Below the pieces are notes generated by a model. The model worked only from the letters and a program-made list of their open reading frames with translations. It searched no databases and was not told where the DNA came from. DNA of 63,812 nucleotides, counting the filler, from Sphacelaria rigidula (Eukaryota), in the NCBI GenBank assembly GCA_964200075.2. It is 8 parts of 8 records of this genome, joined end to end, with 100 filler letters (N's around TTAATTAATTAA, not from the genome) between each part and the next. Parts side by side here need not be neighbours in the genome. Positions count along the whole stretch, not along the records: positions 7,991 to 15,880 come from CAXNAA020013087.1; 7 more parts are not named here. The stretch is one strand, 5' to 3'. This document shows positions 76-56,294 of this stretch, piece by piece. Each line of letters begins with the position of its first letter. The stretch's first letter is position 1. Position numbers and translations under genes: made by a program.

Positions 76-2603
76 CTCATACCCCTGCTTGGGATATGAT
101 AAAAGCGACAGCATGCGCCACCAAATCTTGCGCCTCGTCCCACGCCGGAGCACGCCTGGAGGTCCATGTCGACTCCTCGATTGTCCGATTTGACGCCACT
201 CGCTTGGTACGGCGCACGTTACCCTGCATGTGTTCCTCCAGTAATACCCGCAGTGGCCCCACCACCTCCGCCAAACGCGGCAGGGACGTTCTCAGCCAGT
301 TTACCGCCTGCAGGAACTGCATAAGCTCGCCTGCTGTGCGCGGGCACCTAAGATTGGCCAGCCCGCTCAGTCTCTCGCGGTCATGAGCCACTTGACCACC
401 TGAAAAGACCTTTCCGCGTCATGTGATTTATGTGTCGTAGAACATCCACTTGTGCGCAGCCACAAAAAAACCAGCATCCTCCAAACGGCCCAAAATCTCG
501 TCCAGTGTACACAACAGATCATCCTCATCTTTACCCCACCACAAGATATCACCCACCCATACTTTGCACTGAAGTCTGGTCAATATAACTGTCATGATGC
601 CTTCAAAATACCCCGTCGCATTCAACACCCCTTGCAGCACCCGTGTGGGGTAAACAGATCTTCGGGAGTCGCGGTCGTGAATATTTCTTGTCTATCAGCC
701 GCCAACGGCATCTGCTAGTACCCCTGCAGCATATCAATCTTGCCAATATACGCAGCGCCTAGCAGGTCGATCATCTCCGCCTCGTGGTTAGGCATAACAT
801 TCGGAGCCTTCTCAATCTGCTTGTTTACCGCGCGATAATCACTCACCAGTCGATAACCGCCCTTCTTCGGCGTCGCCATGACCGCATTAGCCCACACTGC
901 CTGTAAACTGCGAAATACTAGCCCAAGCGCCACCAGCGTCGCCATACACCCTGCTAACCACGTTGCCTTTACAGGGGAATGCACCCGCGGGCTCGCCTTG
1001 ACTGCTCTAGCCCCAGGTTTGAATCTCACCTTCCATGGCTTTACACGAGCAGGCGGATCACCGCGCAGTGCTCGCCGAAAAGCGTTGACAAGGCGCCCAA
1101 AAACCTCCCGAAGCTTATCAACACCGCTCGCCGACATACCCTTGTCCGCAGTCGCCTGTACTGCATGATCCAGTGCAACTAGACGCTCTGCCAGCTCCTC
1201 CTCTGGATTCATGTTCATCTCGGGACCACGCAACATCAATCGCTCCACGGGGGGATCGACAGGCTCCTCTTGTCCACCTGGATCCTGTAACGCCTCAATC
1301 GCAATGTTCACACCCCTACATTCTCGGAATTCAGGCGCATCCATATCTCTCACCAATGCGTGTCTTGAGCGTGCGCATGCGACCAGCCCACTGTACACGT
1401 CAATGTCCATGGCCTCCAGCGTACCGCTCCCGATGATCACATCATCACATCATCGGCACCTGGCATAACCGCATAATGACACGGATCCAACACCACCAGC
1501 CTCCAGCTGGTGTGCAAAGCGGTGCGCACTCGGCACGTCTTCGACTGCATACTCCGTACATTACCATCAGGTAGTTTCACCGGGTGTGCACGAGCCATAC
1601 CCGTGACAACTGACACATCAGAGAACACTGCTTGCAACTACTGGACCGCCACTTTTTCAGACATGATCGTGATGCCAGCCCCCGAATCCAAAACTGCAGT
1701 AACAGAGCAAACGTTCTTGACTGTGAAACCTGAAACGGGCAAATCTGCCCGGCAGCATCGCTGCTAACGGTCGACTATTATATGCCTGTAAATCTTCAAC
1801 CTCAGCGGTATGCAAACCCCGCCATACTGGCATTGCCTGAGGCGTCCACTCCTGAGCCGGTCCCGCCAGCAGTTGGGTTTGAACTGCAGGAGCTGGAGCA
1901 CAAGGCTGGGGCGGCACCATGCTATCCGCACTACTAGCACCCCCGTGCGTTCCATTCCCGGGGAAAACAGTCCGTGTGGGAGCAGGACCTTTACTGCCCC
2001 CCCGCTGACCATGGACTGTTGCTGCTGCTGCAGCTGCGGCGGCAGCGACGACTTTTCTCGCCCACCTGACACATTCACCGCGGCCGCAGGTGTGCTCTGT
2101 TTGATACAGTTCTTGTTGTAGTGGCCCTTATCGCCACACTCAAAACAACCTGCATAGCTCGGACCAGGTTTGCGGGGCTTTTCCGAGCTCTTATGGCCAC
2201 TACCTGCTGCGGCGGCCGCAGCCGCTGCGCCGGCATGCGATGTCAGTTTATTCGAGCCTTGTGAGCCGCTTTTTTGCCTAAGCTGCAGTTGCTGGCGGCG
2301 GTGTTCATCAATTTCCTCAACAAAAGTCTTCCATTTTTCCGCCAAGTCATGAGCTACCTCATAAACCACTCTCGGGCTCTCTTTCCAGTCTCTTTTCATA
2401 TAGAGTATATTTTTAACTTTATTCTTGAACTCCGGTGGGGTCAGGCCGGCGACCATAGCTCTGGTAATGATGTGTGCTGGACTAGGCTTGAACGTACGGT
2501 CAGATTCAAGGAAAACGCACTCCGCACCTGCATTTTCCGCAAAGAACTCCTGTAATGAACTCCAATGCCCTTCTACACGACCCATTGCAGTTGGTTCAGA
2601 CCG

Positions 2604-2855
2604 AAGTAATGCTTTGATAGGGGTTGCACTTTTGTTTCTGGGTCTCATTTTTGTAGGAGCCCAAATATATGAGGCTCACTGTGCAACCGAAATCTTCGAG
2701 GATAGGACATCGAGATGCACACAGGGGCCTTTTCGTGAATCGGCATCATTTTCAGCCTGTTCCAAGTGAAAATGATGCCGATTATCAAAATGATCCGTGC
2801 AACACCCTGAGAAACATTTTCGCTCATAAAGTGCGACCCTACCGTAGCATCGCTC
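2604..2855. mobile_element. Sola-like MITE inserted in gag of Gypsy A
   Basis: Imperfect TIRs AAGTAATGCTTTGATAGGGG...CCCTACCGTAGCATCGCTC; 4-bp TSD ACCG (2600-2603, 2856-2859). Removing it restores gag ALAARSEPTAMG, matching GLAARNEQDAMG in element B. Confidence 0.85.
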
Positions 2856-4120: not shown

Positions 4121-7100
4121 AGAGGAACCCGCTGGTTCCTGGAAGAGGGTTTTCAGCTGTGGGCAGCTGCGGAGAAATTTTATCAAAATTTGTGCACAGG
4201 AGTGTGCACTCTGTATCGTGAGGAACCTCGCTGTCAACGCAGAGACGGCTAGGTTGGCTGGAACTGTTGCATGAAGCTATGGCAGCGCGCAACAAGTGGT
4301 TGATGACGATGCAGGCGAAGAGGTGAAGTTTAAGTTTACTGAGCTTATGCCTGCAGGATCTCTAAAAGCCCCAGAGTACGGACGGCAATTTCGCGAAAAT
4401 GCGTCCCGACGTTTTTATCAGAAATACGTCGAGTATGAAGAGGCGGTCAAAATAAACAACAAAAGACATAGCATGCAGGCCGTCTTACTGACTGTTACTG
4501 AACGGGTGCCGAGGCACATCCGTGCGTGTTTGTCACGCGCGGTTTTTGACGGATCCGTGCTTGACGAAGATGTTCTCAAGGTGGCACGAGGCCGACACGC
4601 GAAATGTTGGCAGGATGAAGAGACTGATCCTTCGGTTGCTGCTGCTGGTGTTCGGAAAGGGTTGGCTGCCCGCAACGAGCAAGATGCGATGGGAAGAGTA
4701 GAAGGGCAATGGGGTGCCCTGGATAATTCTATTGCGGAGAATACTAGCGCTGAGCGTGCGTTCCGCGATGATACAGATTTCAAACCAGGACCCGCTCAAA
4801 TCATAACTCGGGAAATATTGAATGGACTAACCCCCCCCCCGGATTCAAAACCAAAGTCCTCAACATGTTGAACATGAAGGGGGGGTGGAAGGAGACCCTG
4901 GGCTTGTGTTTAACACGGCTCGGGAAGCAGCGGAGGCATGGAAGACGGTGGAAGCGGCGGATAAGCAGCGCCGTCAGCAGCCGCAGCTGAACAAAGGAGT
5001 GGCAGCGGGACTTCCGGAAGCAAGCGCCAACCAAATGGTGGACAAACGGCGAGCAGTGAAAATGGGACTGCCAGTTTCGGAAAAACCCGCAAACCAGGCC
5101 CAAACTATGCAGGATGTTTCATATGTGAAAACCATGGCCATTTCCGGAAGGATTGAAAGCAGCAAGGCCAGGCTGGTGCTACACAACCCAGTGACGGTGA
5201 GCAGACGAAGGCTGGTGACAAGCAGCAGCAACAACAGCAGCTGTCGCAGGGCCCTGCACAGGTGCCTTGCGGAGGGGGCACGAGTCCCCCCCCTACAAGG
5301 GCTGTCTTTTCAGCCGATGGACAAAGTGCTCCCAGCGGGAGGGCGACGTTGCCACCAGAACCGGTCGCTTCTACTGGTGGCGTGCAGCAGACCATCTCAT
5401 CGCACTCGTTCCCGGGTTCGAAATCTGAGGCGGTGCTAGCATGGAGATCGCTCAAAGCGGGTGAGGTGTCAGGTTTTCAATCTGAGGGTCTGCAAGTAGA
5501 TAACAAGGAAAGGTGGTGTCTTGCCGACTTGTTTGTCCCGAGTGCAGGGGAAAAGGGCGTTTGTCCGGTCACGGCTATTTTAGATTCAGGATCTGTACTT
5601 ACGACCATGTCAGCTAGTGTGGCGGCGAAATTGCAAGCCATGGTTCCAGATGTCCAAGTGGTGAGACCGATGGCTGGTGAACAGTTGGTGAAATTGGCAA
5701 ATGGAAATGTTGAGCGCGTGAAGCAGAAAACTTGCCCTGTCCGCAACGCTTTGCACACCACCTGGGGTCCGGTTGTATTGGATCCATGTTTCTATGCGGT
5801 CATGCCGGGTACCGATGATGTCATAATCATGGGGAGCCCTATGCTAGAGGAGCTTGGCATCGACGTGTACAGTAGTTTAGGTGCCTGTGCGCGGACAAGA
5901 AACACTTCGGTGCGTGGTGTAGACACGCCTGAATCAAGGGTTGTCGACGTATCAACACCGCGGTTGAGGCTCTGCAGCACCAAGGAGATCGGGAGGAGCC
6001 CATGGATCCATCAGTCGAGCAGCTGGTGTCGCGCGGTCCGGAGATGAGTATGATCCCGGAACAAGAGCTCGCTGAGCATAAGGTCGCCCTGGAGGAGGTG
6101 GTACTAGCGGCTGCCAATGATGGTATGTCCGAGAGCGGCGTGGGCAAGCTTCGCGAGCTTGTAAACCGCCGTGCGAATGCTTTTCGGCGAGCGCTACGTG
6201 GTGATCCGCCCGCTCGTGTCGCTGGAGCTACGGCGCTTAAGGCTGGGCCGCGATCATACCCTCTGGATGAGATGCTACGGTTGGCACGTTGCATGGCGAC
6301 GTTGGTGGCGCTCGGGCTCGTGTATCGCAGTTTGCAGGCAGTGTGGAGCTTGACTGTTGCAACGCCTAAAAAGGGCGGTTTCAGACTGGTGAGTGATAAC
6401 CGTTCGGTCGCTAAGCAGATTGAGAAAGTGCCGACTGTGATGCCAAACCAAGAAGCGGAGATGGCGGATTTATTAGGGGCTGCTTGTTTTGGAAAGCTAG
6501 ACATGCTGCAGGGATACTGGCAGATGCCATTGGCGGCAGATACCCAAGAAATCTTCACGATCGCAAACCCTTACGGATTATTTACGCCTAAGCGCGTGCC
6601 TCAAAGAGTACTCAACGCTACGGGGTATTTTTAGTGCCCTATGACGGAGCTGTTGACTGGACTTCCATGTAAGGTGTGGGTAGATGACATCTTGTGGTGG
6701 GGGGGGCAAATGAAGATGACTTGCTGTGCACGCTGAATGCGATTTTAAGCCGCCTCGAGGATGCTGGTCTTCTTGCGGCTGCACACAAGTGCATGTTTTA
6801 TGATACGCAAATTACGTGATGCGGAAAAGTTCTCTCGAGTGGCCAGGTGGCTCACGACAGGGAGCGGCTGAGCGGTGTGGCGAATATGAGGCGTCTTCAA
6901 GCCGCAGGCGAGTTGATGCAATTTTTGCAAGGCGTGAATTGGCTGCGGACGTCTCTTCCGCGACTTGCCGAAGTGGTGGAGTCACTTCGTCTCCTGCTCG
7001 AGGAGCATATGGTGAGCAACGTGCGCCGTACAAAGCGGGTTGCTTCGAACAAGACAATCACGGAGGCGGCGTGAACGTTTGAGCGCGCGCAAGCTTGAAT

Positions 7101-7890: not shown

Positions 7891-7990
7891 NNNNNNNNNN
7901 NNNNNNNNNNNNNNNNNNNNNNNNNNNNNNNNNNTTAATTAATTAANNNNNNNNNNNNNNNNNNNNNNNNNNNNNNNNNNNNNNNNNNNN
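7891..7990. other. Artificial contig spacer (N44-TTAATTAATTAA-N44)
   Basis: 100-nt N run with a six-frame stop linker; identical spacers at 15881-15980, 23870-23969, 31859-31958, 39848-39947, 47837-47936 and 55825-55924. Confidence 0.98.
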
Positions 7991-10900
7991 ATTCAGTTCT
8001 GCACGCATGGCACTCAACCACATTTCCTTATACTCCGATTTTTCTATGTCTCCTACTGTTACGGGGGGAGTTTCCACATCTCTCACGTGCAGACCGATGG
8101 GAGAACGCAAACCAAAACTGGGTTCCGCCTCTGTCCCGTTTTCGGCAAAAAAACAAAAGTACTCCTGCTCCGCAAAAGCCTCCTTGATCAGCATGGCCGC
8201 GCTGCCCTCCACCTCTGGTTCGGCTGCTGCAGTGATCAGCTCCGTCATCCCGCACTTATCCATTGCCGTTCTATACAGTATAGTCTCCGCTTGAGTCCTC
8301 GCCTGAACCCTCGCCATCGCGCGGGAGAAAAATTCGTTTCTTTCCCATGCCAGCTCATCTGCCACCGCCGCTAGCTCGTTCCGGTCGGCTGCCGCTCTCG
8401 TCGCACTGCGCGTGCGGCCTGCCATTTGTGGAGGCAGAGACAACTCATCGTCGAGTGCAAGACGGCGTAGCTCCGTCCGTGGGATTTCGGGAGCTCCACC
8501 GCCCCCCCCGTCGTTGCGCTCGGGGGTGTCTACGGTTGTCGGTGTTGTTGCTATCGGCGTTGTCGGCGGCGTTGTTGCTGTCGGCGGCGACGTGACTGTC
8601 GGCGGCGATGTGGGCGTCGCTGATCCCCCGCGATCAATGAGATGCCGGACAGGGTTGCGCAAAACCCCGCCCCCCCCCCCCCCTCGCTTCTGCAAGGAGG
8701 TGGCGAGGTCATCTCACCCCCCCCCCCCCGCCAATAGCGGTGGTCTGTTGTGTCGCGTCTGCGTTCAGCTCTGGGTTGGGAAGCAAGAACGACACGTGAC
8801 GTGAACCGCGGGGTGAAGCACGCGCCGCCGGAGTCTGCTGTTCCGCGGACTTGCTGCCGGCCGGCCCTCCCTCGATCTTATCATCCCTCGCTCCGTCGGG
8901 CGTCGGGATCGCTTGGATGGGTTGCCGAAGTCCTTTTCCTTCCGAGCATCCTCGGCACGATCTCAACTTGCCGCGAAGCTCCACTCCGAGCTGCTTTGCA
9001 GTCCGCCGGAGCAGGTCCTCGTGTCTTCAACTTGAGGGTTGGAAAGTTTCCCCGGGGCAATCACAGCGCATGCAGACGCATGCTTGTCATGACCTTGCGG
9101 ATAGATGCGTTTGGCGTACATGATCAATTGTCTGTGCTGACCTGGGATTTGCAGGGTATTGCCTGACTTTAACTCAACCCGGAAGCCGTTACTAGACCCA
9201 ATGTAGGTGAGACCCGCGTTGGACATCCTGGTCAGTGACAACAGATGGTGACGGACACAAGGTGCGTGGTCTACATTTTTCAAATGCAAGACTATATCGC
9301 GTCCGTCAGATCGTGCAGATAGAGCCACGTTTCCTCTTCCCACGATCGGGTAGGTACCACCGCCTGCATACCGTAGTACCCTTCCACTGCATTTTCTATC
9401 ATCCGTCATCTTACTTGAATCAGGAGAAAAGTGCGAAGTGGCCCCCGTGTCAAGTACCCACGGTTTGCCCCCATCTGACCGCTCTACACCCCCCTTCCCA
9501 GTTTCAAACGTATACTCGCCTGTGATGACCTAATCTACCGTCATGCCGAGGCTGGTGAACGCTTCTACATCAGCATCCGAAAAGACGAAGTCGTCGTCCA
9601 CCACGTCTTCCGCCACGCCCATCACAGTCGCCGCGTCCTCCACAGTGCTCTGACAGTCAATCAAATTATATCCTCTCTTCCCGCACCTCGCGCAACACCT
9701 GTCTGGACAGTCTCTCGCTCGATGTGTGGTCATCTTCTGACAAACGTGGCACCTCCACGGCGTCGCAGCCACCGACTGGCTTGTTGACGATGATGCCGGC
9801 GACTGGTTGTTTTTGCCCTGTCCCCCATCAGCTGCGCGTCCTGGGTTCTGGATCTTTCCCGGTTTACCTTTCCGGTGTGAGCCGTTAGGTTTGCCGGAAT
9901 GGCCCTTGACCGCAAGGGCCTGGTCGCCCGGGAAAGCCCTCTTCCCCTTGGCGAGTTCCTGCTTGAAAAGTGCCGATTTGAAACATTTTCGAACCGACGT
10001 CACTACGACTTCCCTCGTGAGCGGACCCTCGCGCTCCTCCAACGCCTGTTTTTGGTAGTTATACTCGCAAGGAAGCTCATTGACAAATTTGAGGAGGGTT
10101 TGCGCCTCCGTCAGGATGATGTTGGTGTCGTGTTATTTTAACTCTCTCGCCATCTCTTCCATCTCGATTAGTTTTTGAACAGGATCATCGCGAACTCCAA
10201 TTTTCACGTGATCATATTCTTTTAGAAGAGCTAATCTAGCTCCGTTGGTCTCGGGGGTGTAGAAACCATTCAACTCACGCCACACAGCTGCAGGAGACGG
10301 AATTCGGAACAAAACATCCCGATCCCGCTTATGTTCGAGACTCGCCACCAACATTTGCCTCGCCCTCACGTTTGCAGCTACAGTGCCCTTTCCGTGCCTT
10401 GCTTAGAGACAACTCAAGGATAACGCCTTGTTTCCCACCTCCATATCGTATGCCCTATCTTCTGACATAGTAAACACCCAATCAACTGCTTCGCTCGTGG
10501 CAAACATGATTAGCTCGCGACTGTAGTAGTTAAACTCTGAACTCTTCCCAAAGAATTCAGGTACAGTTGCCTTGAAATCCGGGACCCCAGAAATATTTTG
10601 GACACTTGGTCGATCGTGACCGAACACTGCGACGGACTCACTAGCGGGGTCTGCACCCCTTGCTCCGTCGCTTGCTGTCTTGTGGTCGCTCCCGCACGGA
10701 GCTCCCTGCTCGCCCTCGCGGCTCCGTCTTCGGCCTTGGGGTGTGATGTGATTGGCTGAGCTCTCAGCCCGGTGTTGTTGTGTTGTTTGGTCTTGTTCGC
10801 TTTCGACGACGCCACTCTACCTCGCGCCCCCGGACTCTCGGTCTTCGATGTCATCTACCCTACCCTGTATTCCAGTCTCTGTAAATTGTACATCTCTGAC

Positions 10901-11298
10901 CATCTCGGTCAGTGTGCTAAACTGACCACTGAACAGACTCATCATATTTCCAAGTTGACTCGTCAACCCGTCTAACTTTTCTCCTGAAGACGGAGCGTTG
11001 CCATCGTTCCTAGCCATAGTTGTCCAATCGATTGATCACTAGTGTATTCCTTGGCTCAGGCACAGGGTAATGATTTTCTATCTTTTATTGAAGAGCACCC
11101 AAGTTCTACTGTAACTTGGGAGAGTGCTGATGAGATGGAGAGTAGTTATACATGAGTGGGCAAGGGTGGCGGTCTGCTCCGCTGCTCTCAGCCGTACTGT
11201 ACCATATTTGCAAACACATGACTGTCGGTACTCGTACGTCACTCCGATCCCCGGTTCTACGTAGATCCAGCATTACTGGGTATCTGAATCACTCGAAC
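7991..11298 (-). mobile_element. Degenerate Ty1/Copia LTR retrotransposon 1 (gag, zinc knuckles, protease, GAG-pre-integrase, integrase core deleted, RT start)
   Basis: Gag fragments (VPDFKATVPEFFG, AAVWRELN..Y), knuckles CHVCQKMTTHRARDC / CARCGKRGY, protease DTGATSHFS, CRGCSEGK, and the pre-RT motif EMWLSAMRAELN at the contig edge. Putative LTR ~11043-11298. Homologous to 31959-35300. Confidence 0.9.
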
Positions 11299-11525
11299 AT
11301 GTCCGTCCAGGACTATAAACATGAGAAAACAGGAAGACTAACGATCGTGCGGAGCATAGCTGTGCACCATCCACATATACACGAGCGAGCCAAGCAATGC
11401 AATCGCTCATTGTGGGAAAAGATATAATGTACGTTCACAGCGTCATGTATTGGAATGTGTTAGGATGGGCTAGGAACAGTGCACCAGACATGAAGTGGCG
11501 ACGCACATTGCATCGATAACCTCAC

Positions 11526-14500
11526 CTACTGCATGACCCTAGGTCCTCAAGCACCTCGAGGGCAATTTCATAGCTCCGCGGTAGGCACATCGTAACAGCC
11601 CTCGTGTCGCCGACTTGGTTGTGCATGATGCGATGAAAAAGCCCCGGCTCACTCTTGTCGCAGGGCCAACCTTTTGCCCTACTGGACGATGACGCCCAGA
11701 CGCCTCGGCCAGCCCGTGCACAGCTCACGAGACAGACGTCGTCTTCCAAGGAGAGTCCAAGGGGTTGATGTCCGTGCGCTTTCTGTATCCAGGAATCCAG
11801 CCATTCGCGGCTCTGATGTCTTACGTCAACCGCTACTTCACGTTTGGCCTTCGTCACGCGATCCCATTTATTCCCCACAAGCACCACGTTCGCATCGGGC
11901 ACACGGAAAGTCAAATACCTTAGCCAAGGAGCAATGGCGAGATCTTCAAGGTTCAAGGTATCCATCTCGCTGGCTCTCTCCGCATCCCATACCAAAAGGT
12001 ATACAGCACGAGGGGTGAGAAACAGCTGGAGCAGTCCGTAGTAGACAACCTATCGAATGGTCGCAGTCGAGGGTCATGAACACGTAGAGAGGTTTACATG
12101 AGTGGAAGCGTGGTGTCAAGTGACATGAGCTAAGCCATAGGGTGCGGGCTCATAAGAAACGCAACCACGTTGAAATAATGCCGGGGTCCGAGATACATTG
12201 AGATAACAATCATTGTCATAATTATGTCGCCGTAAGAGTGACCCGACTTTGGCACGATACTGAACTTCGAACCGACAATATCGCCTGCGGGCTGCATGTT
12301 TCTTAACAGCAATGAGGGGAACAAGTAGAACCCATTGGTGATGAGTCCAACGAAACAGTTCCCGATATACGCAAAAGGGTACCAACGGCAGCGAATCCAC
12401 TTCAAGTGGATCTGAAAACCTTTTGCCACTACTGTAATCGAAGGTCATGTGACAGGCCGCGAGAAACGTGCTGCGGCAAGTAGCCATCTCAATATTTCGC
12501 CTCGGTGAATATCACAGAACGGCAAATGAGAATGTACGTCGACCTATCATCACGTAAGCGGACCGACCGGGTCAACTAAGCGCGGCATAAAAAAAATATA
12601 CAACATGACAAAACATTTGCCTCACCTGACCGGCACAATCAAACATCCGAATCGGATGACCATCGACTTCGTGGTCTTCAACATCCACGTGGACTGTGCT
12701 ATCCTCACCACCCTTTCTTGTCGTGTATGGCTTCCCGGTCTTGATGCTGTGACGTAGACTGCGGCAGTGCATGCAGGGCATGACATGCGTCAAAAAGGCT
12801 TCATTCACTTCACATCAATGCCCACAGCGCCCGGTCCAAGTAGATATTTTAAGCCTATAACGTCCAGTCCTAATCTCATCTAGCCGTGAAGTGACCTCAA
12901 GTGATTTTTTTTTGTGAAAACAACAAGGTTGCTCAGAAGCACTGGAAAAAATCGACCCCGCCGTGCCGCGGGAATGGAAATGTGTGTTGGTTCGAAGGCG
13001 TGTCCCTGAAGGGCATGGTTCTAGCGTCTTAGACGCAATGTTCTGCCAAGCAACGGATTCGCTCTCACAGCACAACCAAGTCCATACAGCACGGTCGTTT
13101 CGTGACTTATGAATGGGGTTAGAACTGGGGTGGGCAAATGGCGGTAACATTATTCCGCTGTACCGATTGCGTGTAAAAAATAAATGGAGAGCCGAAGAAA
13201 TGGTGATTTCGTACCTTGTCTTGCCAACAGTCTCCTTCCCAATGATGACAACCTTAAGTGGTCGGACCACAGTGGAAGTTCCGTCCCTGAAGACGGCTTC
13301 GAAGTACTCTCTCACCGACGGCAGACCACCCATCACGATTGACTCGGGAGGGTGCTCCCACTGGTTTGGATCAAGATGTAAAGCAGGAATCCCCTCGAAA
13401 CGGTCAAGAAGAGAGGCCAATGCCACCGGAAGAATACCTAAAGAATGCCGAGAAGGAACGCGGGACACACGGCCGGGCGGAAACATGAAAATCACGTTGT
13501 TCGCGGCCGAGACGGGGTGCATCCCACACGACCGATGCCTCCATGTCGTCCAGGTTGTCCACCCTTCATGTCTACACTGCATGGTTGCAGTTAGGAAGGA
13601 GCTGTAACGCCTCGTAAAAAGCTCAGGTCGGAACTTCATTTAATGGCTACTGACAATCCAAAATATCTTTCCGATCAGGCACTAGGAAATACTTGGTGCG
13701 ATTTCATCCATTCGGGCAGCGTTGCGTCAACCACGTCGACAAACACGCACGAAACAAAAATGCCGCGCTGGATAGTCGCGTGACATTCCTTTACGAATCG
13801 TAAGGGCAGATGAGGTCAGGCTACCTGTTATCAGCACGCCAAGCGAGGCATGGAGACTTTAAACATATTCCCTTATCACCTCCATGCTTTCTCCAAGAAC
13901 GGAGCAGGCATACAACACCACGTCCAAAAATAGTCTACATTTATAACCCAAGCTCGCGAGTTCGCAAGTTTGACGCAGTCCTGCAAACCAAACGATAAAC
14001 GAGAGTGCGGTAGCATATCGCACACATCCGTCCCCATGCAACGCACCTACATGCCGAGAATCATCATCGTCGAGTGCACCATCCAGCCCACCTGGTCGGG
14101 CTGTCATTGACCCAGCCTGGTCATGTCGAAGCGTCGGCCACAGCCCTGCATGAACAGCGGCGTGATTGCCAGACACTAAGCAGTGGGAGACCTTTAATAG
14201 GAAACGAGTACAAATCTACTGAGCTTCAAGAGGGAAAACTTTGATCCAGTACAATCCCCGAATGGCCTGCAGGCAACACTGGCTCAACCCCATGTGGTCT
14301 GCCATCTACCCAAGGTTGATATTCACACGGCCTATTGTCGCCAAGTTTCTGGTGCAGGTACACGGTGACCGTTTGCATCATTCGGATCATAAACAGAGAG
14401 AAGATTCGAGAAGGAGCCAACCGCAAGTTCACAAATCAACGGTTCCATGCATGCGTCCCGCCAAAGCCGTGGGTAAAGTTGATCAAATTCCTCAAGTAGA

Positions 14501-15754
14501 GGTAAAGCTGTGGTAAGTTGCCCAGCAGACCGACGGACGCAGGAGTTTTGACTCCATGGCATTGGAAACGGGCGAAGATGGAAGTACATCACATAGCCCC
14601 ATTGTATGGAGTTCGACTACCGCCCCTGTTCCTGGACAAGTCAATTTGTCCCAGAGACTCACCGCTTAGCTGATTGTTAGAGAGGCGAAGCTTCATCAGG
14701 TTGCCCAGCTGACCAAGCGACGCGGGAACCACGCCTGCATGGCATTGGAAACGGGCGTGGATTAAAGTAGTTCAGGTTTCCTACCATTTCTACAAACGTA
14801 TACCGCCCACCGGTAGACGGGAAACAGTCCTAGAAGACATGAACAGACTCACTCGAGCCTTTTGTGTCGAGTTCAACTTCCGCCCCAATCCCATAAACAT
14901 TGAGTTGTCCAGGGGACTCACCGCTCAGCTGGTTGTTGGAGAGGTCAAGCTTTTCCACCTTGCCCAGCTGACCAAGCGACGCGGGAACCACGCCTGCATG
15001 GCATTGGAAACGGGCGTGGATTAAAGAAGTTCAGGTTTCCCACCATTTGTACAAACGTATACCGCTCACCGGTAGACGGGAAACAGCCCTAGAAGACACG
15101 AGTAGACTCACTCGAGCCTCTTGTGTCGAGTTCAACTTCTGCCCCAATCCCATAAACATTGAGTTGTCCAGGGGACTCACCGCTCAGCTGGTTGTTGGAG
15201 AGGTCAAGTGTTTGCACCTCTCTCAGGTGACCAAGCGACGCGGGAATATCGCCTGCATGGCATTGGAAACGGGCGTGAATGGAAGTACATCAGGTTTTTC
15301 ACCGTTTCTATAAAGTGTCCTGCCGACCCGTGGGCGGGACACAGTTCTACAAGACATCAACGAGACCCAGCTTGACACCATTGTGTGGAGTTTGAATACT
15401 GCTCCTACACCCATACACGTTCATATATCAAAGGGACTCACCGCTCAGCTGGTTGTTTGAGAGATCAAGCTTTTCCACCTTTCCCAGCTGACCAAACGAC
15501 GCGGGAATTTTGCCTGCTTGGCATTGGGAACGGGTGTTCATGGAAATACATCAGGTATTTCACCTTTCTGAAGATGTATCCGGCCTACCCAACGGCATCA
15601 ACGGGGCCCAATTTGACACTACTGTGTGTAGTTCGATTTCTGCCCCTTCTCCCATACACGTTAGTTTGTCCAAGGTACTCACCGCTCAGCTTGTTGTTGT
15701 AGAGATCGAGCATTTCCATGTTACCCAGCTGACCAAGCGACGCGGGAATTTCCC
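11526..15754 (-). CDS. ROCO protein (LRR-ROC GTPase), partial multi-exon gene
   Basis: Exons in consistent phase: LRR 15683-15754, 15442-15513, 15181-15252, 14922-14993, 14663-14734; then 13215-13437 (LRR cap NQWEHPP + P-loop GKETVGKT/S), 12626-12758 (STVHV...FDCAGQ) and 11526-12049 (YYGLLQLFLTPRAVYLLVWD...VLVGNKWD). All GT-AG. The 5' exons and the COR exons lie outside the contig. Confidence 0.93.
14480..14551 (-). pseudogene. Degenerate LRR pseudo-exon in a ROCO intron
   Basis: Reads VKTPASVGLLGNLPQLYLYLRNLI; the acceptor is mutated to GGAG, there is no GT donor at the 72-nt position, and read-through hits TGA. Confidence 0.75.
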
Positions 15755-15800
15755 CTGCAGGATGTTGGACACGGGCGTGGATTGAAGTACATCAGGTGTC
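14480..15800 (-). repeat. Tandem array of LRR exon+intron units (periods 259, 259, 261 and 241 bp, plus a 183-bp step to a degenerate unit)
   Basis: Each unit is a 72-nt exon encoding GxxPASLGxLxxxxxLxLxNNxLS followed by an intron; intron sequences are alignable between units. Confidence 0.95.
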
Positions 15801-16765
15801 TAACCGTTCCAAGGGTCGGACAAATAATGATTCGTCTGGAAATTACTTGGTTTTAGTATCATGAGTCGACTCGTGACGAANNNNNNNNNNNNNNNNNNNN
15901 NNNNNNNNNNNNNNNNNNNNNNNNTTAATTAATTAANNNNNNNNNNNNNNNNNNNNNNNNNNNNNNNNNNNNNNNNNNNNAGCTTTTTGATGTTTAGCTT
16001 GGCTTCTGCTGGGGGCAGTTCGATACTTAGCATCTTCGTGAGGGGGTAGGGGGGGGGGGGCTAATCTACCCAGCTTACCCAAAGTGGCCGTTGTTGTACT
16101 GTTGTCATCACTTTTTTGTTCACCGGGGCACGGGGGGAGTGGCAAATGTCAGAGCAAAAGCTGAAAAAATGCGACAAACTGTACAGAGTCTTTGGGCGGT
16201 TAAATTGTACGAGTCTCACACGGTGGTTCCTCATGACTACGAGACCCTGCAGGACGTCGATTACTACTCCACGCTCTCCGCACAATAGCCCGATCTCGGG
16301 AAAGCCGTGGTTACGGGCGAAGACTCAACTTTCCAGTACTGTCACAACTATTCCTTACAGGAGATAGAAACGCTTATTGAGCGGCTTCTTCTGAGACGGC
16401 GAAAACAAACCGAACAAGAACACGAAAAAGACAAGACGCCAACAGCACACAGGAGAACATACCTTCCCCCCGTAATATATGTAAAAGGTTCTAGTATCAT
16501 GTATGGAAGAAATGTTGCAGGTCTCTATTAGGAGTAAGAGCGGTAATCCCCCTCAAAAGGGATGCGTGGTCAAAGGTCAAACGACAAGGGCAAACGACAA
16601 ATGAGTACCCCCCCCCCCCCTCCCGCTCCGTCTTGAAATGGACGCATGGTCAATGGTCAAATGACTGAGGTAAACGGCAAATGAGAACGCCCCCCCCCCT
16701 CTCCCAATCGCTAGCCGGCGTAAAAGCTTACTCTTACAAACCCTTCAAGAGGTTCATGAAAGGGA

Positions 16766-23250: not shown

Positions 23251-25103
23251 AAAAAGTCGGGTGTGGTGCAGGAACTGAGATATATGCCACCTTGATTTCC
23301 TTGCTTAGGCCATCTCTTGTAGGCAGAAGGCGGGCTCTCGGAGAAATGGCCTTTGTGAGCCTTTTATCGCGGATTTTCGGCGGAATACGGGCCTTCGCGG
23401 ACTGGGGCTCCACTGAAAGATTTCCTGCAGGCTGGGTCGCCCAAGACGCGGACAGGGATGTGAACACGCGACTTCGCAGCTCGAATTTGGGTCGTTTTTT
23501 ATGAAATTTGACAAAATGTTCAGGACGTATGTACGAAGACTCCATTTCCGGCCCCCTACATTTGCCCCCTCTTTTTTGGAATTTTTCACGATTTTGTTCC
23601 GAAATATAATGTTGTGGAATGCTTGGTTGCCGATAACTCACGGAGAAAAAATAAATAGATGTACGGGGCAAATGGGGGCGTCTTCGCATATACATCTGCA
23701 CATCGTATCAAAATTCGATAGAAAACGACCTGAAAGTAACCCTTTTGGGACCGGACCCCCGCTAACACAGGCTTGACCTTGTGTTAGTGATATAATAAAA
23801 AAATAAGTCTTCGAGCGACCTACCCAATCACAGCGAGGCGAAATTCGTTGACCAGATCCGAACGACCAGNNNNNNNNNNNNNNNNNNNNNNNNNNNNNNN
23901 NNNNNNNNNNNNNTTAATTAATTAANNNNNNNNNNNNNNNNNNNNNNNNNNNNNNNNNNNNNNNNNNNNGCATGATCATGAGTACACCCCCTCCCCCCCC
24001 CGACTTTTCTTCTGCGATGCTCGCCTTAATTTTCACAATAGTTTATTTTTCTCCTTCTCCTTCCCTTTTTTTTTCTTCTTCCATTCAGTTCACGTTATTC
24101 TCTGTTTTCTGTTCCGTATTCTCCCTTCTCGATTTTCTTCCAACAAGCGCTACCATTTGCTTGACCTTTGAATACGATCCCACGGCTGGGTTATGACTCG
24201 TCGTGGATCAGGTCGTGCATCACCTTTTCATTATTCAAATATTGAATAATTATATTTGGTGTCTAAAACACGTGCGGGGAACGGACAGAGGCACGGTGTT
24301 GTCACTTCCTTTTCTTTTTGCCCTCCCGAACTAAGAATAGTCCTTTCATGCATTTTTTTTCCTGTCCGCTTATCCTATGGCAATGAGTGACGCTGTGCTG
24401 TACGAGTGGTCGTATTAAGCTCACACTCTGGATAATGACAGTAGACTACACACTGTCGAAAAGTGTACTGCGTGCAATATGGAATCTATCGTCTAATGCA
24501 ATAGACGCAATAGTCGATACTGTATGCAGTACGCTTTTTGACAACGTAATAGTTGTTATTTTCCAGGGTGTGATTAAGTTGAACCGAACATCCCGTGAAA
24601 TCTTATCGAGATAATTATCGCGAGCTTAACAAATATTGTTGCTTGCTGTTCGGAGAATATTCATCCCCTGCGCGGGGCGTCCCTGCTTCCACGTCTGTTT
24701 TATGCTGACCGGGTGACCATGGCTAACCCTAACCTTAACCCCGCGGGATCAATTACAGTGTGACGATCAATCAAATCGAAATCACATCGATGGGCTAGTT
24801 TTTTTTCGATCGACCGGTGATGCCGTCTGTTGCCGAGAAGGTAGATGACTCTGTTGTTATTTTTCGTTCTTTCCGCCCCCCTTCCCCTCCCATTCTTTGT
24901 TTTCTTGTGTGTGTGTGTTTTTTTCTTTTATATTTCTCCTTGCATTTCGTGCTTTTAGAGCTCTTCATTCTTCGTTTTTAATTTGTACTTGTGTGTGTAC
25001 GTGTGTGGGTGTATGCGTGTGTGTGTTCATCTTCTTATTTATATTTTCACTTTTTTTTTATTCCTTTGTTTGGCTGCTTTTTTTGTCGTTACTGTGTTGC
25101 CAG

Positions 25104-31730: not shown

Positions 31731-31958
31731 TATCCGAATATTGGTGTCCACACGTTTTTGTTACGTGTTTGTCTACTATGTCGTTCTTTTCGACTTTGTT
31801 TTTCTTCTGTTCCTTTTTTTTTTTCTCAGCGAGTATTTCAGTTTTGTTTTTCTTGGGTNNNNNNNNNNNNNNNNNNNNNNNNNNNNNNNNNNNNNNNNNN
31901 NNTTAATTAATTAANNNNNNNNNNNNNNNNNNNNNNNNNNNNNNNNNNNNNNNNNNNN

Positions 31959-34900
31959 CCCCCCCCCCCTCGCGGCGACGGTGGAGGCACTTCGCCCCCT
32001 CTACTACTGACGGGGATCTGCGGTGCTGCTCCGCCCCTCCCACCAACGGAACTCGGCGGGGAGGACGGCGCGCTTGAGGAACCGCTGGGCGAAGTATCCA
32101 CTGCCGAGCTTTCCGTCCTGTCTTCACCCACATCCTGGCCTTGATCGACGCTGGAATCCTTCAGCTCGCCCGGCGTCTGGATCGCTTGCTGTAGTGTGCG
32201 GGGGGGGGGACAGCGGACGTACGTGCCCATGTTACATGTCTTGTCACGGAGATAGTTCCTCGTACAGTCAGAACTCGCATCGCGTCACGTGGGTAGCCCT
32301 CGGCTGGGCTCAAGTACCAGCATTTTTCGGTCTTCGGCTGTAATTTATTTGTCCGCTTCCTATAAAAACCAGGCTCCAAGAGCGGAATGAGATCACCTTC
32401 CGGTGGTGATCCATACCACATCTCATGCGGTGGTTTGTGGTGCAGGTTAGACGAGGTAGCGGTACAGTTCAGGGCGTGACACGCCCAGTTCACCTGTTCA
32501 GCCCACAGGCTGTCCCCATTTGGGATGCGCTCGTCGGGGTACAGCTCAGGTGCTTGGATTCTGGCCGCAAGGTCTGCTGTTTCGATGACACCTAACGCTC
32601 GCTCTACAACACCGTTGAACTGGGGTGAGTCGGCAGTTGTCTTCTCCTGCTTGATCTTTTCTCTGTCGCACAGTTCACCAAATGCACCCTCCGAAAATTC
32701 ACCCCCGTCATCGCTACGGACTATCTCGATTTTTCTCGGAGAGACCCATGCAATATATTTCGCGAAGTATCTCTCTGCTTCATCCTTCTTACGGAGGAAA
32801 TACAGCTTTGTGTGCCGTGAGGGATCATCTCGGACAATCATCGTGTACGACTTTCCCCCGTTAGACTTGACTGGTTTCGGCCCGGAAAGATCTACGAACA
32901 CCCTAGACGCTGACTTAGCTGCTCTCGTGTGCGTCGATCTTGGAATCGGTCTCCGCAGTCCCTTCGCCTCTGAATAGCCGCGGCAGGGCTGCAGCTCCCC
33001 AGCCAGCTGCTTTCCCTGCTGCTTCGCCGTCTCCTCAGCAAATCCTCGTGGACGTGAGCGTGGGAACAGTGGAACTCATTGATGTCAGCGGTCTGGGGGC
33101 TAGGCGGAGCCCCCGGGGCAATAACAGCATATGCCGAAGCACACTTGTCACCACCACTTAGATCGAGGCGGCGGGCGTACATTCTGAGTTGACGTGTTTG
33201 TCCGGGTATTATCAGTGCATTTTCTGAATTGAGATCTACCCTGAAACCTGTACAAAAAGCAGTGTAGGTGTGTCCCATGCGTTGGACCCTCGTGAGTGAC
33301 AAGAAGTGATGACGGACACCAGGTACATGATCAACATCTACCAGTTTTAGGATTACATCCTGTCCGTCAGATCTGAAAGCAAGATACAAATTTCCTCTGC
33401 CTACGATCGGGTAAGTACTACCTCCCGCAAACCGTTGTGCACTACCCTTGCACTCTCTGTACTCCGTCATCCCATGGGAATCGTGGGAGAAATGCTGGGT
33501 AGCCCTCGTGTCAAATATCCACGGTTCGCCCTAACCCTGCTGACTATCACCCCCCCCGCTCAACACTCAATGCATACTCGCCTGTGTCGCCGTTGATGGT
33601 GGTGCCAAGAGAGTTGAAAGCCTCTCCATCCGCCACCGAACAGACAGAGGAGCTGCCGCTGTCGTCGGCCGCGCCCGTCGCCTTCACCGCGTCTTCTTTC
33701 TTCTCTGTCGATCTCGGGCAGTCTCAGAACGTGTGCCCCTGCTGACCGCACCTCCCGCAGTATCTCTTCGGGCAGTTCCTGGCTCGATGCGTCGTGTTCT
33801 CGTTGCAAATGTGGCAGCGGAGCAGCTGCCCAGTCGCCGGTTTGCCGTCCGACGATGCCGACCCAGAGCTACGTGAACTCTGGCTCCCGCCGTTTTTCTG
33901 ACCATAGCCCTGGGGTTTTCTCGGTTTTCCCTTGCGGTGGGCACCGCTCGGTTTCCCGGTCGCACCCCTGGCAAGGAAAGCCTGGTCACCCGGGGATAAC
34001 TTCCTTCCCCGGGCAAGTTCCTGCTTCAAAGATGTTGATTCGAAGCGCTTTCGGATCAAAGTCAACACAACCTCCCGTGTCAGCGGTCCCTCTCGATCCT
34101 CGAGCAATTGCTCTAAATGTGATACTCGAAAGGCAACGCGTTGAGAAATGTCAAGAGAATATGGTTTCCGCTTAGTCGTTCATGCTCCTCGTATGAATTC
34201 AGGTTACGTGCAAGTTCCTCCATCTCGAGCAGCTTCTGCTCTGGATCATCACGGACACCAATCTTGACTCCATCGAACTTTTCCAACAAAGCGGTTCTCG
34301 CCCCATTTGTTTTGGGGCGAAAGACATCCTCGAGTTTTCTCCAAACCGCAGCAGGTGAGTGGAGTCTAAGCAAAATATCTTGCTCCCTCCTTCCTTCTAA
34401 ACTAGCTACAAGTATTCGTCTGGCCCTTACGTTGGCTGCCACTGTGTCCTTCCCATGTCTGCTCTCCAGATACCCCATTTCTATCTCAGGATTACCGACA
34501 TCTACATCGTAAGAACTATCGCCGGCCATGGTGAACACCCAGCCAATTCCTTCGCCCCTTGCGAAGTTGACCAGTTCGTGCCTGTACCGAGCATATTCAG
34601 CGCTCTTCCCTGAAAATTTTGGGACGTTCTGACGAAAAGCGGGAACCCCTGACACATTTCCACCTGTATCGTTTATTTGGATTGACTCGCATGCGGGGAT
34701 AAAGCCCCTAGCTTCATCACTGGTGGCCTCGTTGTCCATTGCGTCGCGCGCTCCGTCCTCTGGAACAGCTTGACTTCCGATGTACCATCGCTCACTTCGA
34801 ACTCCAGCACCACGTCGCTCCGCTGTTCTATTTATGTTGAATTCCCCCGGTTGACTATGGGAGCCTTCACTATCGAAAACGTCGTTGTTTTCTGCCCCCC

Positions 34901-35300
34901 CGACCTCTCTTTCGAACCTCAAATTGCCCATGTTACTCTGTAATGTAGCTTGACTTAGCTGCATATCACGCATGAGCTGAGCCAAGGTGATCTGACTACG
35001 TACTTCTCGCATCTCCTCAGTAACACCCTGCTCACCCCTCACTGTAGCAGGCATATGACCTTGTTCTACCATTCTGCCCAACCGGTTGTAACACTAGTGT
35101 ATTCCGTGACCCGTGGCGAAGGGTAGACAGTTTTATCTTTCGTATTATTGGAGAGTGCCTAGACTGAGTCGACCCTATGACTGAGGGATCAGATGTTGAG
35201 TGAGCTCAGCGGGCAGCGTCGTAGCTGCCGTGAGCGGGGTGCTGTAGTCACACACACTCGACTACCAGTACCCGCACGTCCGCATTGATCTGTCCGCACA
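31959..35300 (-). mobile_element. Degenerate Ty1/Copia LTR retrotransposon 2 (gag, knuckles, protease, integrase; RT beyond contig end)
   Basis: Gag ORF 34113-35081, knuckles CHICNENTTHRARNC / CGRCGQQGH, protease region 32892-33470, and integrase VDLSGP...IVRSDDGGEF...SPQFNGVVER (32161-32901). PR-IN order; LTR boundary approximate. Confidence 0.93.
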
Positions 35301-39232: not shown

Positions 39233-39947
39233 ATACCGCAGGAGCTTGATGCGGGACCGCCAAACGCCAAACCCCAGTTGCCAATTGCTGATTGCATGAT
39301 GAGCATTTTGCGCACAATGTAGCACATGGTCATGACACCTCGAAGTGATGTAAAAGAGGGCATATGCCAAGCTTTGTCGTTTCACTGCACATCCGAACAC
39401 AAATATAACAAACGGTAACCCGCCACCACAAAATACGGAATTCACCATGGCTTGCTGTTCAACTACACGCGTGTTTGCCGACCCGGACGTGAACGAGTTT
39501 GCGCTCTTATCCCCATGTGCTGCCAGACTTGGCTTCCTTGTTCCCATCCTCCGCTCCTCACGGAGAGTCTCTTCTGCTGCATGCTACAGATGAATGATTT
39601 CGAATCGCTCACCGCTTTGAATGGGGTTTTAATGTCACCTAAGCCTCTTATTATAGCTCCTCAATCTGAGGGGTCACATTTTTTTGCGGCTGTCCACATT
39701 TTTGAAGTGAATACAAGCCAAATCCCGCAATTCTTCTTGCCTCCGGCGGCGCTCCCGCGAGCCCCCCTTACGAGCCGGGGGGGTGTACTCATGATCATGC
39801 ATGCCATAGTCATCAAACCATTGACCTCGCATCCCTACAAAGCCGGGNNNNNNNNNNNNNNNNNNNNNNNNNNNNNNNNNNNNNNNNNNNNTTAATTAAT
39901 TAANNNNNNNNNNNNNNNNNNNNNNNNNNNNNNNNNNNNNNNNNNNN

Positions 39948-55595: not shown

Positions 55596-56294
55596 CTGCG
55601 TCATCGATTGCTGTACTCTTGCCCTTATGAACCGGGTAGATGATTTTGACAAGACTGGAGAACAAGAGGAAAAGTGTGATCGGCCTGGGGGTTCCGTACT
55701 TTCAGTTTCGACGCATATAGGCCCCTAAAGTTGAAGTTCGATAAATATTCGGAGGGAGGGGTGTACTCATGATCATGCATGCCATAGTCATCAGACCATT
55801 GACCTCGCATCCCTACAAAGCCGGNNNNNNNNNNNNNNNNNNNNNNNNNNNNNNNNNNNNNNNNNNNNTTAATTAATTAANNNNNNNNNNNNNNNNNNNN
55901 NNNNNNNNNNNNNNNNNNNNNNNNGGGGGGGGGGGGGGGGCATGATTGGTCGACCGTTATATATATATAGAGTGATCCGCTCAGCATCCAGCGGAGATGA
56001 CAAGATAGATGTACCCATGGCAAGATGAAAACACACCAAAGCAATGTTCGAGTACAGTAGACACCGTGTAGCAGAAAAAAGACAGCATTGTGCACCTCCA
56101 TTTACGCTCAACGCTCAAGAGTGGGTAGCAGGCCGGACACATCAAAAGTCGGACAAGCTTCACGTATGAGCCGTAGTGTGTCCGGAAGGCAATCAATTTT
56201 CCATTCTGCGGGTCGATGGCAAACAAAAGCGTTTGCCTGACAAGGGAGGACCCCGAATGGATCATACCAGATCGCATCGGACGGGGGGGGGGAG

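Follow-up and report, generated by a model that had tools for sequence, protein, structure and literature searches.

Organization of the locus

The window analysed here is a stretch of 63,812 nucleotides from Sphacelaria rigidula, put together artificially from pieces of roughly 7.9 kb with seven joins that recur about every 7989 nt. The piece that concerns us has its lower end at 7991 and its upper end at 15880, and carries on its minus strand what is very probably the LRR region of a brown-algal ROCO GTPase gene, expressed and of LRR-Roc(-COR) order, with exons of the published type I kind in an array that grew by tandem duplication. Sequencing runs were compared as assembled contigs of bulk samples, in which rare isoforms can be missed. 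Two of the runs, X6 and X7, are treated as RNA on the strength of their spliced contigs and an automated guess, there being no record of them as RNA. From the upper end of the piece downwards, the features are as follows.

15881..15980, no strand: artificial join (44 N, TTAATTAATTAA, 44 N) terminating the piece
15810..15859, no strand: short repeat of very high copy number within the intron upstream of LRR1, from contig depth
15683..15754, minus: LRR exon 1, 72 nt, phase 1/1; AG acceptor, GTGAGT donor; donor joint to LRR2 in an X6 contig
15442..15513, minus: LRR exon 2, 72 nt; splice sites; both edges by X6 joints 15512/15682 and 15251/15441
15181..15252, minus: LRR exon 3, 72 nt; splice sites; acceptor joint in X6
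14922..14993, minus: LRR exon 4, 72 nt, hybrid; splice sites; RNA depth in its bin, no joint listed
14663..14734, minus: LRR exon 5, 72 nt; splice sites; joined directly to the linker exon (joint 14144/14662 in X6 and X7)
15218-14960 and 14959-14701, minus: two copies of the youngest duplicated block, 259 nt each, from sequence comparison
14480..14551, minus: decayed sixth LRR unit in the intron between LRR5 and the linker; gAG acceptor, no GT donor; skipped by the RNA joint
14047..14145, minus: linker exon, 99 nt, phase 1/1; joints 14144/14662 and 13435/14045; splice sites; aligns with the linker of homologues
13215..13437, minus: Roc exon 1 with P-loop GKETVGKT; tblastn 57-61% identity to homologues; RNA joints; frame
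12626..12758, minus: Roc exon 2 with switch II DCAGQ; tblastn; acceptor joint 12758/13215; splice sites; frame
11526..12049, minus: Roc exon 3 (NKWD) and the first post-Roc residues; 71-74% identity to Ectocarpus ROCO proteins; GT donor at 11525
7991..11035, minus: copia-like retroelement ORFs, truncated at the piece end, within the intron that follows 11526; Pfam Pol_BBD, E 2.1e-12

A preliminary description of this DNA had assigned it to a ROCO (LRR-Roc) GTPase gene, and the assignment is borne out by homologues, by their tblastn alignment and by a frame that stays open through Roc. When the nine exons are joined, this frame is uninterrupted for 445 aa, contains GKETVGKT, DCAGQ and NKWD, and reaches through the Roc GTPase domain; the last Roc exon alone, a partial domain, scores 19.7 bits with Pfam Roc, under the cut-off of 27. 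A homology search among 1101 candidates returned 27 proteins at E <= 0.001, and Pfam Roc (PF08477) is present in 26 of them. The best relatives are brown-algal ROCO proteins, the top match having an E value of 7e-79 and 74% identity; every match that bears an organism name comes from a brown alga, and one is titled 'LRR-GTPase of the ROCO family'. An exact match to the protein is absent from the database, so the present gene is a different one or comes from a different species. Judging from the family, the encoded protein is presumably a cytosolic GTPase in which an arc of LRRs binds a ligand. Any immune role would likewise be that of the family, and an immune-receptor function for this locus is an analogy drawn from the literature.

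The 5' end of the gene falls outside the piece, and in homologues the first LRR unit usually begins at residue 59. LRR1 itself lies only 126 nt from the upstream piece end at 15880; the array is thus cut by the artificial join, and five LRR units is a minimum for an array that may be longer. At the high-copy repeat, depth in the last bin is 1e4 to 6e5, and each of the four runs shows numerous loose ends at 15806-15818 and 15855-15862. Rfam gave no matches at E <= 1 in 11500-15880.

At the other end, the retroelement ORFs, with what we take to be a CCHC-type knuckle and a DTGA motif, run from 7991 to about 11035 in the orientation of the gene. Within 7991-11525, tblastn found no COR-like coding (all matches E >= 0.55). 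Perhaps, then, the locus is a dead gene fragment in which the retroelement severed COR from the Roc exons; ROCO pseudogenes are indeed described as frequent in Zambounis 2012 (PMC3341825). We consider this reading very unlikely, given that the frame is open across all nine exons and that the RNA contigs are spliced. Moreover, these contigs end their match exactly at GT donor 11525 and continue for 180 (X6) or 599 (X7) letters that are absent from the adjoining intron, which fits splicing to exons beyond the piece.

The LRR exon array

All five LRR exons are exactly 72 nt long and encode one 24-aa LRR each, with flanks of the form cag/G...G/gtgagt, in which the slashes mark the exon edges. Each intron interrupts a Gly codon after its first base, which is phase 1 by the classical definition, and does so on both exon sides; the linker exon is likewise phase 1 at its start and end. 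Exons with such symmetry allow any unit to be gained, lost or skipped in frame, as the preliminary description had stated. Its account of five 72-nt, phase-1/phase-1 exons agrees with the coordinates, splice sites and RNA joints found here, and we obtained the same five LRR translations.

The units are spaced 241, 261, 259 and 259 nt apart along the minus strand, matching the period of about 241-261 bp proposed earlier, and TRF reports a period of 259 with 4.5 copies and 80% matches over 14646-15805. With up to 3 mismatches allowed, a 23-nt exon core is found at five places in the window, always on the minus strand, and matched in none of 100 shuffles. The conservation extends beyond the exons: in all six units (the five exons and the decayed one), the terminal ~47 nt of the intron are conserved as well as the exon is. 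The five exons all fit the motif GxxPxxLxxxxxLxxLxLxxNxLx, which equals that published for the type I LRR exon, a class defined by one LRR per 72-nt exon in Ectocarpus ROCO genes (Zambounis 2012, PMC3341825).

Residue variability among the units

It had been suggested that differences between the units cluster at the x positions of the xxLxLxx strand. The counts do not support this, nor do they support diversifying selection at exposed positions. Among the five units, 12 of the 24 positions vary, the most variable being position 2, with 4 states; the five x positions (14, 15, 17, 19 and 20) account for 6 of the 18 extra residue states, position 20 is invariant, and positions 12 and 13 are just as variable as 14 and 15. 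LRR3 has the unit-specific residues H9, R11, E12, Q14 and T15. Across the 13 family-variable positions, those on the concave face have 1.2 extra states each versus 1.0 for the others, which is no enrichment.

Pairwise pN/pS ranges from 0.35 to 1.34, a crude NG86 estimate from five 23-codon units in which pairs are non-independent, and gives no clear signal of diversifying selection. With positions 12, 14, 15, 17, 19 and 20 pooled, pN is 0.27 and pS 0.72. The exons have acquired three changes since the last duplication, each of them a residue replacement within codons 14-15. Figures from five units have no statistical power. For comparison, Teng 2024 (PMC11378527) places positively selected concave-face sites at 14, 16, 18 and 19 in a 23-aa numbering, equivalent to 15, 17, 19 and 20 here.

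Growth of the array

Exon shuffling has left two traces at this locus, an inactive LRR copy within an intron and a recombined unit, LRR4. The intronic copy, at 14551-14480, is a sixth unit that the preliminary description had missed, and over its 72 nt it has 28-32 mismatches to the other units.

The recombined unit stems from the youngest duplication, in which a 259-nt block runs from nt 35 of one exon to nt 34 of the following exon. The two block copies differ at 13 of 259 positions (5% divergence) and the flanking exon parts at 7 of 34 and 10 of 38; inside versus flanks (13/259 against 17/72), Fisher's test gives p 1.2e-5, with boundaries picked post hoc. Introns i3 and i4 have 10 mismatches over 187 positions. 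Since both breakpoints lie inside exons, LRR4 is a hybrid exon: its nt 1-34 are identical to LRR5 and its nt 45-72 to LRR3.

Any two units have 15-21 of 24 residues in common, whereas the best 24-mers from the 27 homologues reach no more than 14-15 of 24, which favours growth in place. Such unusual mutual likeness suggests that the array is young or homogenised. A tblastn search of the whole window with LRR4 turned up no LRR copy on the other strand or outside the array: the five exons were recovered at E <= 1.1e-7 and the decayed unit at E 0.23, and the remaining matches (E >= 0.44) have no LRR pattern. Very probably, tandem duplication or unequal crossing-over of exon-plus-intron units enlarged the array in the germ line. 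One older unit decayed to an intronic pseudo-exon, and in the latest event a 259-nt block with its ends inside exons was copied, yielding the new hybrid repeat LRR4.

Splicing of the array

The X6 and X7 contigs contain five minus-strand GT..AG joints that the DNA runs lack. Three of these, 15512/15682, 15251/15441 and 14144/14662, sit at predicted exon edges (a shift of 1 being allowed). One X6 contig joins LRR1, LRR2 and LRR3 in genomic order, and other spliced contigs connect LRR5, the linker, Roc exon 1 and Roc exon 2. The X7 contigs have no cover over LRR1-3 and are uninformative there. For the LRR3-4 and LRR4-5 boundaries no RNA joint is listed, since 31-mers shared between these units break the contigs, and LRR4 is presumed to be included in the mRNA. 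The mRNA observed has its exons in genomic order.

Could the array instead be an alternative-splicing cassette, in which differing subsets of the five symmetric exons give several receptor isoforms per gene? We regard this as possible but not probable. Every LRR exon and the linker being phase 1/1, any skip would preserve the frame, and the ~47-nt conserved intron ends could reflect splicing control. In addition, alternative splicing of ROCO LRR exons is documented in Ectocarpus, where Teng 2024 (PMC11378527) describes up to nine splice variants that differ in LRR content. At the present locus, however, there are no exon-skipping joints among those listed for X6 and X7, all five of which connect neighbouring exons. 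This is weak evidence against skipping, because contigs lose rare variants and break at the sequence shared by LRR4 and LRR5. Folds of the intron flank with its exon are also no more stable than those of shuffled sequences. Of the two sources of diversity put forward in the preliminary description, recombination or alternative splicing, recombinational gain of a unit is supported by the 259-nt block and LRR4, and isoform diversity is not, the listed joints being consecutive only.

A docking/selector or hairpin structure at the conserved intron flank was considered and rejected, with fold z values of -1.29, -0.40, -1.25, -0.86 and +1.15 for the five units. Only four inverted pairs were found, of 15-20 nt and 75-93% complementarity, and so there is nothing like a docking and selector system.

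Variation between samples

Differences in units between individuals find no support at this locus. In the independent DNA run X4, each of the four inter-LRR introns is present with at most 1 mismatch, and the units are the same, all present and with no joint; the sole exception to constancy is an ambiguous, low-depth contig of run X5. This contig holds LRR5 and its downstream intron, and then continues upstream with i3-type letters at 9 of 9 listed sites. The i4-type sequence is missing from X5, a run that covers only 0.35 of the sampled words. The contig has a depth of 4 and crosses a 67-nt stretch that is identical in both units, and its last 24 letters fit neither unit. It hints at an allele that lacks LRR4, and it may be a chimera of the assembly graph. 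We consider it rather improbable that the array is turning over now and that the species is still polymorphic, or mosaic, for the 259-nt duplication behind LRR4, with X5 representing a form in which LRR5 directly follows an i3-type intron. If this were true, individuals or cell lineages would have receptors of differing repeat number.

A more radical proposal is that recombination, possibly somatic, is still acting on the array and rearranges its LRR units inside a single individual, in line with the hypothesis of adaptive immunity through LRR reshuffling put forward in Zambounis 2012 (PMC3341825). The latest duplication is young, at 5% divergence, and has its junction within an exon, and the X5 pattern would fit an allele or a cell lineage without LRR4. 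It is nonetheless difficult to see such a process here, and we judge it highly improbable: the low depth, possible chimerism and limited cover of X5 weaken its testimony, X4 holds all units, and the germ-line copy already has a full open frame and normal splicing. Moreover, the opposite strand and the rest of the window have no LRR copies, and according to Teng 2024 (PMC11378527) a somatically recombined ROCO locus has yet to be reported.

Growth in the germ line by tandem duplication, our preferred account, gives the locus a small mechanistic value, as a base-resolution view of how a new LRR variant arises by in-register duplication with breakpoints inside exons. The junction pair i3-LRR5 versus i4-LRR5 could be typed by PCR or long reads to show whether individuals or tissues vary in unit number, which is the question left by the 2012 somatic-recombination hypothesis.

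Relation to known receptor systems

The locus is a further example of a published brown-algal family of candidate receptors; the arrangement is already known, and the general picture is unchanged. The new details are the decayed sixth unit that is skipped by RNA and the 259-nt block duplication that makes the hybrid LRR4.

ROCO proteins of bacteria and animals, such as Chlorobium tepidum Roco and LRRK2, have an LRR region followed by a Roc GTPase. The present gene shares this order, and differs in that a kinase or other added domain is absent from the part seen. To our knowledge, a gene structure with one exon per LRR is specific to brown algae. Lamprey VLR and Drosophila Dscam also vary a binding surface by choice among repeated cassettes. 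The VLR germ-line gene is incomplete and is assembled somatically from flanking cassettes, whereas the array described here is complete in the germ line, in frame and spliced in order. In Dscam, splicing is mutually exclusive and depends on docking and selector pairing, which was not found at our locus; Dscam exon arrays are discussed in Teng 2024 (PMC11378527).

The closest parallels are Ectocarpus type I ROCO genes (e.g. Esi0032_0115 and Esi0032_0138), whose 72-nt exons likewise hold one LRR each and match these in boundaries and motif, and which also have a linker between the LRR block and Roc, inactivated intronic LRR copies, and an LRR domain rearranged by recombination; the Roc exon here is 71-74% identical to Ectocarpus proteins. 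In contrast to those genes, the units of the present array are unusually alike, and the sole inactive copy lies on the coding strand, with none opposite. The brown-algal NB-ARC-TPR genes, as treated in Zambounis 2012 (PMC3341825), also have one repeat per exon and undergo exon shuffling, but their repeat is TPR rather than LRR and their nucleotide-binding domain is NB-ARC rather than Roc.

That the type of system is not new, as noted in the preliminary description, is plain from Zambounis 2012 (PMC3341825) and Teng 2024 (PMC11378527). The brown-algal ROCO genes of the latter share the 72-bp LRR exons and the LRR-ROC order; unlike those genes, the present one has no alternative joint among the joints listed. 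A difference in terms also deserves mention: the 'phase 2' of Teng 2024 counts the leading bases that complete the codon, and corresponds under the classical definition to phase 1, the term used in the preliminary description.

The LRR exon array

The array in the second piece of the window is real and was read correctly, and it belongs, as an ordinary member, to a family already published. Five minus-strand exons, numbered in transcript order, make up the array:

15754-15683, minus strand, LRR1 exon, 72 nt
15513-15442, minus strand, LRR2 exon, 72 nt
15252-15181, minus strand, LRR3 exon, 72 nt
14993-14922, minus strand, LRR4 exon, 72 nt
14734-14663, minus strand, LRR5 exon, 72 nt

Each exon is preceded by cag, followed by gtgagt and encodes one 24-residue repeat, and the introns split a Gly codon after its first base (classical phase 1) on both sides of every LRR exon. 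Splice sites and translations agree with the preliminary description of five phase-1/phase-1 exons with one LRR each, and the measured spacing (241, 261, 259 and 259 nt) bears out its exon-plus-intron period of about 241-261 bp. Over 14646-15805, Tandem Repeats Finder gives 4.5 copies of period 259 with 80% matches. A 23-nt exon core occurs five times in the window (<=3 mismatches), on the minus strand only, and matches in 0 of 100 shuffles; no further LRR copies were found on the opposite strand or on other pieces of the window. One degenerate unit, absent from the preliminary account, has 28-32 mismatches in 72 nt to the other units:

14551-14480, minus strand, decayed sixth LRR unit, AG acceptor kept, GT donor absent

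Considering that the RNA joint from LRR5 to the linker exon passes over this unit, it is an intronic pseudo-exon.

How many units might the gene contain? Joins of 44 N, TTAATTAATTAA and 44 N recur every ~7989 nt across the window, which therefore consists of eight pieces of ~7.9 kb each. The artificial joins (44 N, TTAATTAATTAA, 44 N) are:

7891-7990, join
15881-15980, join
23870-23969, join
31859-31958, join
39848-39947, join
47837-47936, join
55825-55924, join

The artificial joining truncates features close to the joins, and adjoining pieces are not necessarily genomic neighbours. The upstream end of the array piece (7991-15880) lies 126 nt from LRR1, and upstream of this exon the resemblance to the other introns is limited to the last ~50 nt. 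Also upstream, contig depths over a repeat of ~50 nt (15810-15859) add up to between 1e4 and 6e5 in each of the four runs, and its flanking sequences there are many and different. This repeat probably belongs to a mobile element or satellite of very high abundance, and no second copy was found within the window. Since the piece ends just beyond LRR1, with this high-copy repeat before it, five LRR units is a minimum.

The ROCO gene and its transcripts

A search with the ORF at 12049-11522 returned 27 proteins at E <= 0.001 among 1101 candidates, the top match (E 7e-79) having 74% identity over the whole query. Pfam Roc is present in 26 of the 27, one homologue is annotated as an 'LRR-GTPase of the ROCO family', and the organism-named matches are all from brown algae (Ectocarpus species, Pylaiella, Sphacelaria, Scytosiphon, Laminaria and Hapterophycus). 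With three homologues as tblastn queries, a linker exon and three Roc exons map downstream of the LRR array. The nine exons, joined at their splice sites, give an open frame of 445 aa with the GTPase motifs GKETVGKT, DCAGQ and NKWD. The last Roc exon alone scores 19.7 bits for Pfam Roc, below the cut-off of 27, because it holds only the end of the domain. No COR-like coding was found in 7991-11525, where all matches had E >= 0.55.

Transcript evidence comes from contigs of two runs, X6 and X7, neither on record as RNA, whose contigs show GT..AG joints. Five such minus-strand joints are present there and missing from the DNA runs X4 and X5:

15512/15682 and 15251/15441, minus strand, joints LRR1-LRR2-LRR3 in order, one X6 contig
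14144/14662, 13435/14045 and 12758/13215, minus strand, joints LRR5-linker-Roc exon 1-Roc exon 2, both X6 and X7

Together with the Roc-bearing homologues, the joints running from LRR5 through the linker into Roc uphold the earlier assignment of the array to a ROCO GTPase gene. The contigs over the last Roc exon speak against a dead gene, as they end at the predicted donor, 11525, with 180 (X6) and 599 (X7) additional letters; these tails fit splicing to exons beyond the piece.

No LRR3-4 or LRR4-5 joints are listed in the X6 and X7 contigs. Contigs of 31-mers break at LRR4, of which 34 nt recur in LRR5 and 28 nt in LRR3. Exon-skipping joints are likewise not listed in these contigs, from which rare variants drop out. 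In the Roc exon 1 bin (13264-13410), summed depth is 1645 in X7 and 10 in X6, with 2-15 in adjacent bins; the X7 peak is probably a short high-depth contig from elsewhere that matches there.

Origin of the array

Among LRR1-3, the exons differ by 15-21% and the introns by 23-33%, so that the exons of these older units are more alike than their introns. Between the introns after LRR3 and LRR4 (i3 and i4) there are only 10 differences in 187 positions, yet the exon pairs LRR3/LRR4 and LRR4/LRR5 have 10 each in 72. Compared in register, a block of 259 nt that begins at nt 35 of one exon, spans the intron and ends at nt 34 of the exon after it differs at 13 positions, versus 7/34 and 10/38 in the exon parts outside (Fisher p 1.2e-5, with boundaries set after the data were seen). 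This distribution, sparse inside the block and denser in the exon flanks, suggests that LRR4 is a hybrid in which the 5' part is that of LRR5 and the 3' part that of an LRR3-type exon. Such a unit would have been produced by tandem duplication or unequal crossover, with the junction within the exon. The units agree mutually at 15-21 of 24 residues and with any 24-mer of the 27 homologues at no more than 14-15, as would fit in-place growth or homogenisation.

In X4, an independent DNA run, contigs span the whole stretch, with eight base differences and one 1-nt gap. Each of the four inter-LRR introns has its own contig there, with 0 or 1 mismatch, and no joint is present; unit content is therefore identical in that sample; the contigs break at exons, and so inform on unit content rather than order. 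A depth-4 contig of X5 at 14590-14893 exactly matches LRR5 and its downstream intron, and upstream carries the i3 letters at nine of nine listed sites. This contig could represent an allele without LRR4, and no i4-type sequence is shown in X5, which covers the locus patchily. Alternatively, it could be a paralogue, or a graph chimera formed over the 67 nt that both units have in common; its final 24 letters match neither unit.

Known systems and diversification

Zambounis et al. 2012 (PMC3341825) describe this arrangement in Ectocarpus, with each LRR on its own 72-nt type I exon, up to 18 LRRs and a linker to Roc. The LRR motif of those exons is identical to that of the array. The same authors report inactive LRR copies in introns and recombined LRR domains, as the preliminary description had noted for exon shuffling, and propose somatic recombination. 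The study of Teng et al. 2024 (PMC11378527) covers 111 genes with 4-49 LRRs in four brown algae, reports alternative splicing of LRR exons and states that somatic recombinant loci have not been found; the 'phase 2' used there refers to the two bases at the start of the exon and denotes the arrangement called phase 1 for this array. A search of titles and abstracts found no other papers on brown-algal ROCO LRR exons.

Half of the 24 positions vary among the five units:

position 2, four residue states
positions 12, 13, 14 and 15, three residue states each
positions 3, 7, 9, 11, 17, 19 and 22, two residue states each
position 20, one residue state, invariant

Differences had been said to cluster at the x positions of the beta-strand. 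The five x positions hold 6 of the 18 extra residue states, and position 20 is invariant; the data do not support the claim beyond chance level. Among 85 units from the 27 homologues, positions 15, 17 and 20 vary most, in agreement with the published selected sites 15, 17, 19 and 20 (PMC3341825). Positions 5, 6, 20 and 24 are variable in the family and fixed in the array, so youth accounts for its sameness as much as constraint does. Among the five units, pairwise pN/pS is 0.35-1.34, and the exposed positions pooled give pN 0.27 and pS 0.72, a crude count from non-independent pairs. The exon differences inside the 259-nt block (n=3) are confined to codons 14 and 15, and each alters the encoded residue, which is suggestive of binding-face diversification, although three changes prove nothing.

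As to special diversification at this locus, which the preliminary description proposed, the evidence is thin and leans against it, because only consecutive joints are seen, X4 has the same units, and pN/pS is not above 1.

Intron flanks and retroelements

In each intron before an LRR unit, the last ~47 nt show roughly the conservation of the exon scaffold, also in front of the decayed unit, and the middles of the introns are diverged, with indels. The conserved intron 3' flanks are:

14735-14781, before LRR5
14994-15040, before LRR4
15253-15299, before LRR3
15514-15560, before LRR2
15755-15801, before LRR1
14552-14598, before the decayed sixth unit

No fold around these flanks is more stable than in shuffles, Rfam gives zero matches, and only short inverted repeats were found. 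A small hairpin across the acceptor can form in units 4 and 5, where the opening bases of the exon (G-V-V codons) can pair with ccacgcc in the flank; units 1 and 2 lack this hairpin, and it is not significant:

14993-14987 with 15018-15012, hairpin arms, unit 4
14734-14728 with 14759-14753, hairpin arms, unit 5

Copia-like ORFs lie in 7991-11525 on the same (minus) strand as the gene (Pfam Pol_BBD, E 2.1e-12). The sampled pieces are transposon-rich:

7991-11035, minus strand, copia-like gag-pol ORFs within the intron after the Roc exons
32161-35093, minus strand, another piece, similar element with ORF sequences related to those at 7991-11035
715-2675, minus strand, and 4275-6634, plus strand, long ORFs that by eye look like retroelement gag and polyprotein
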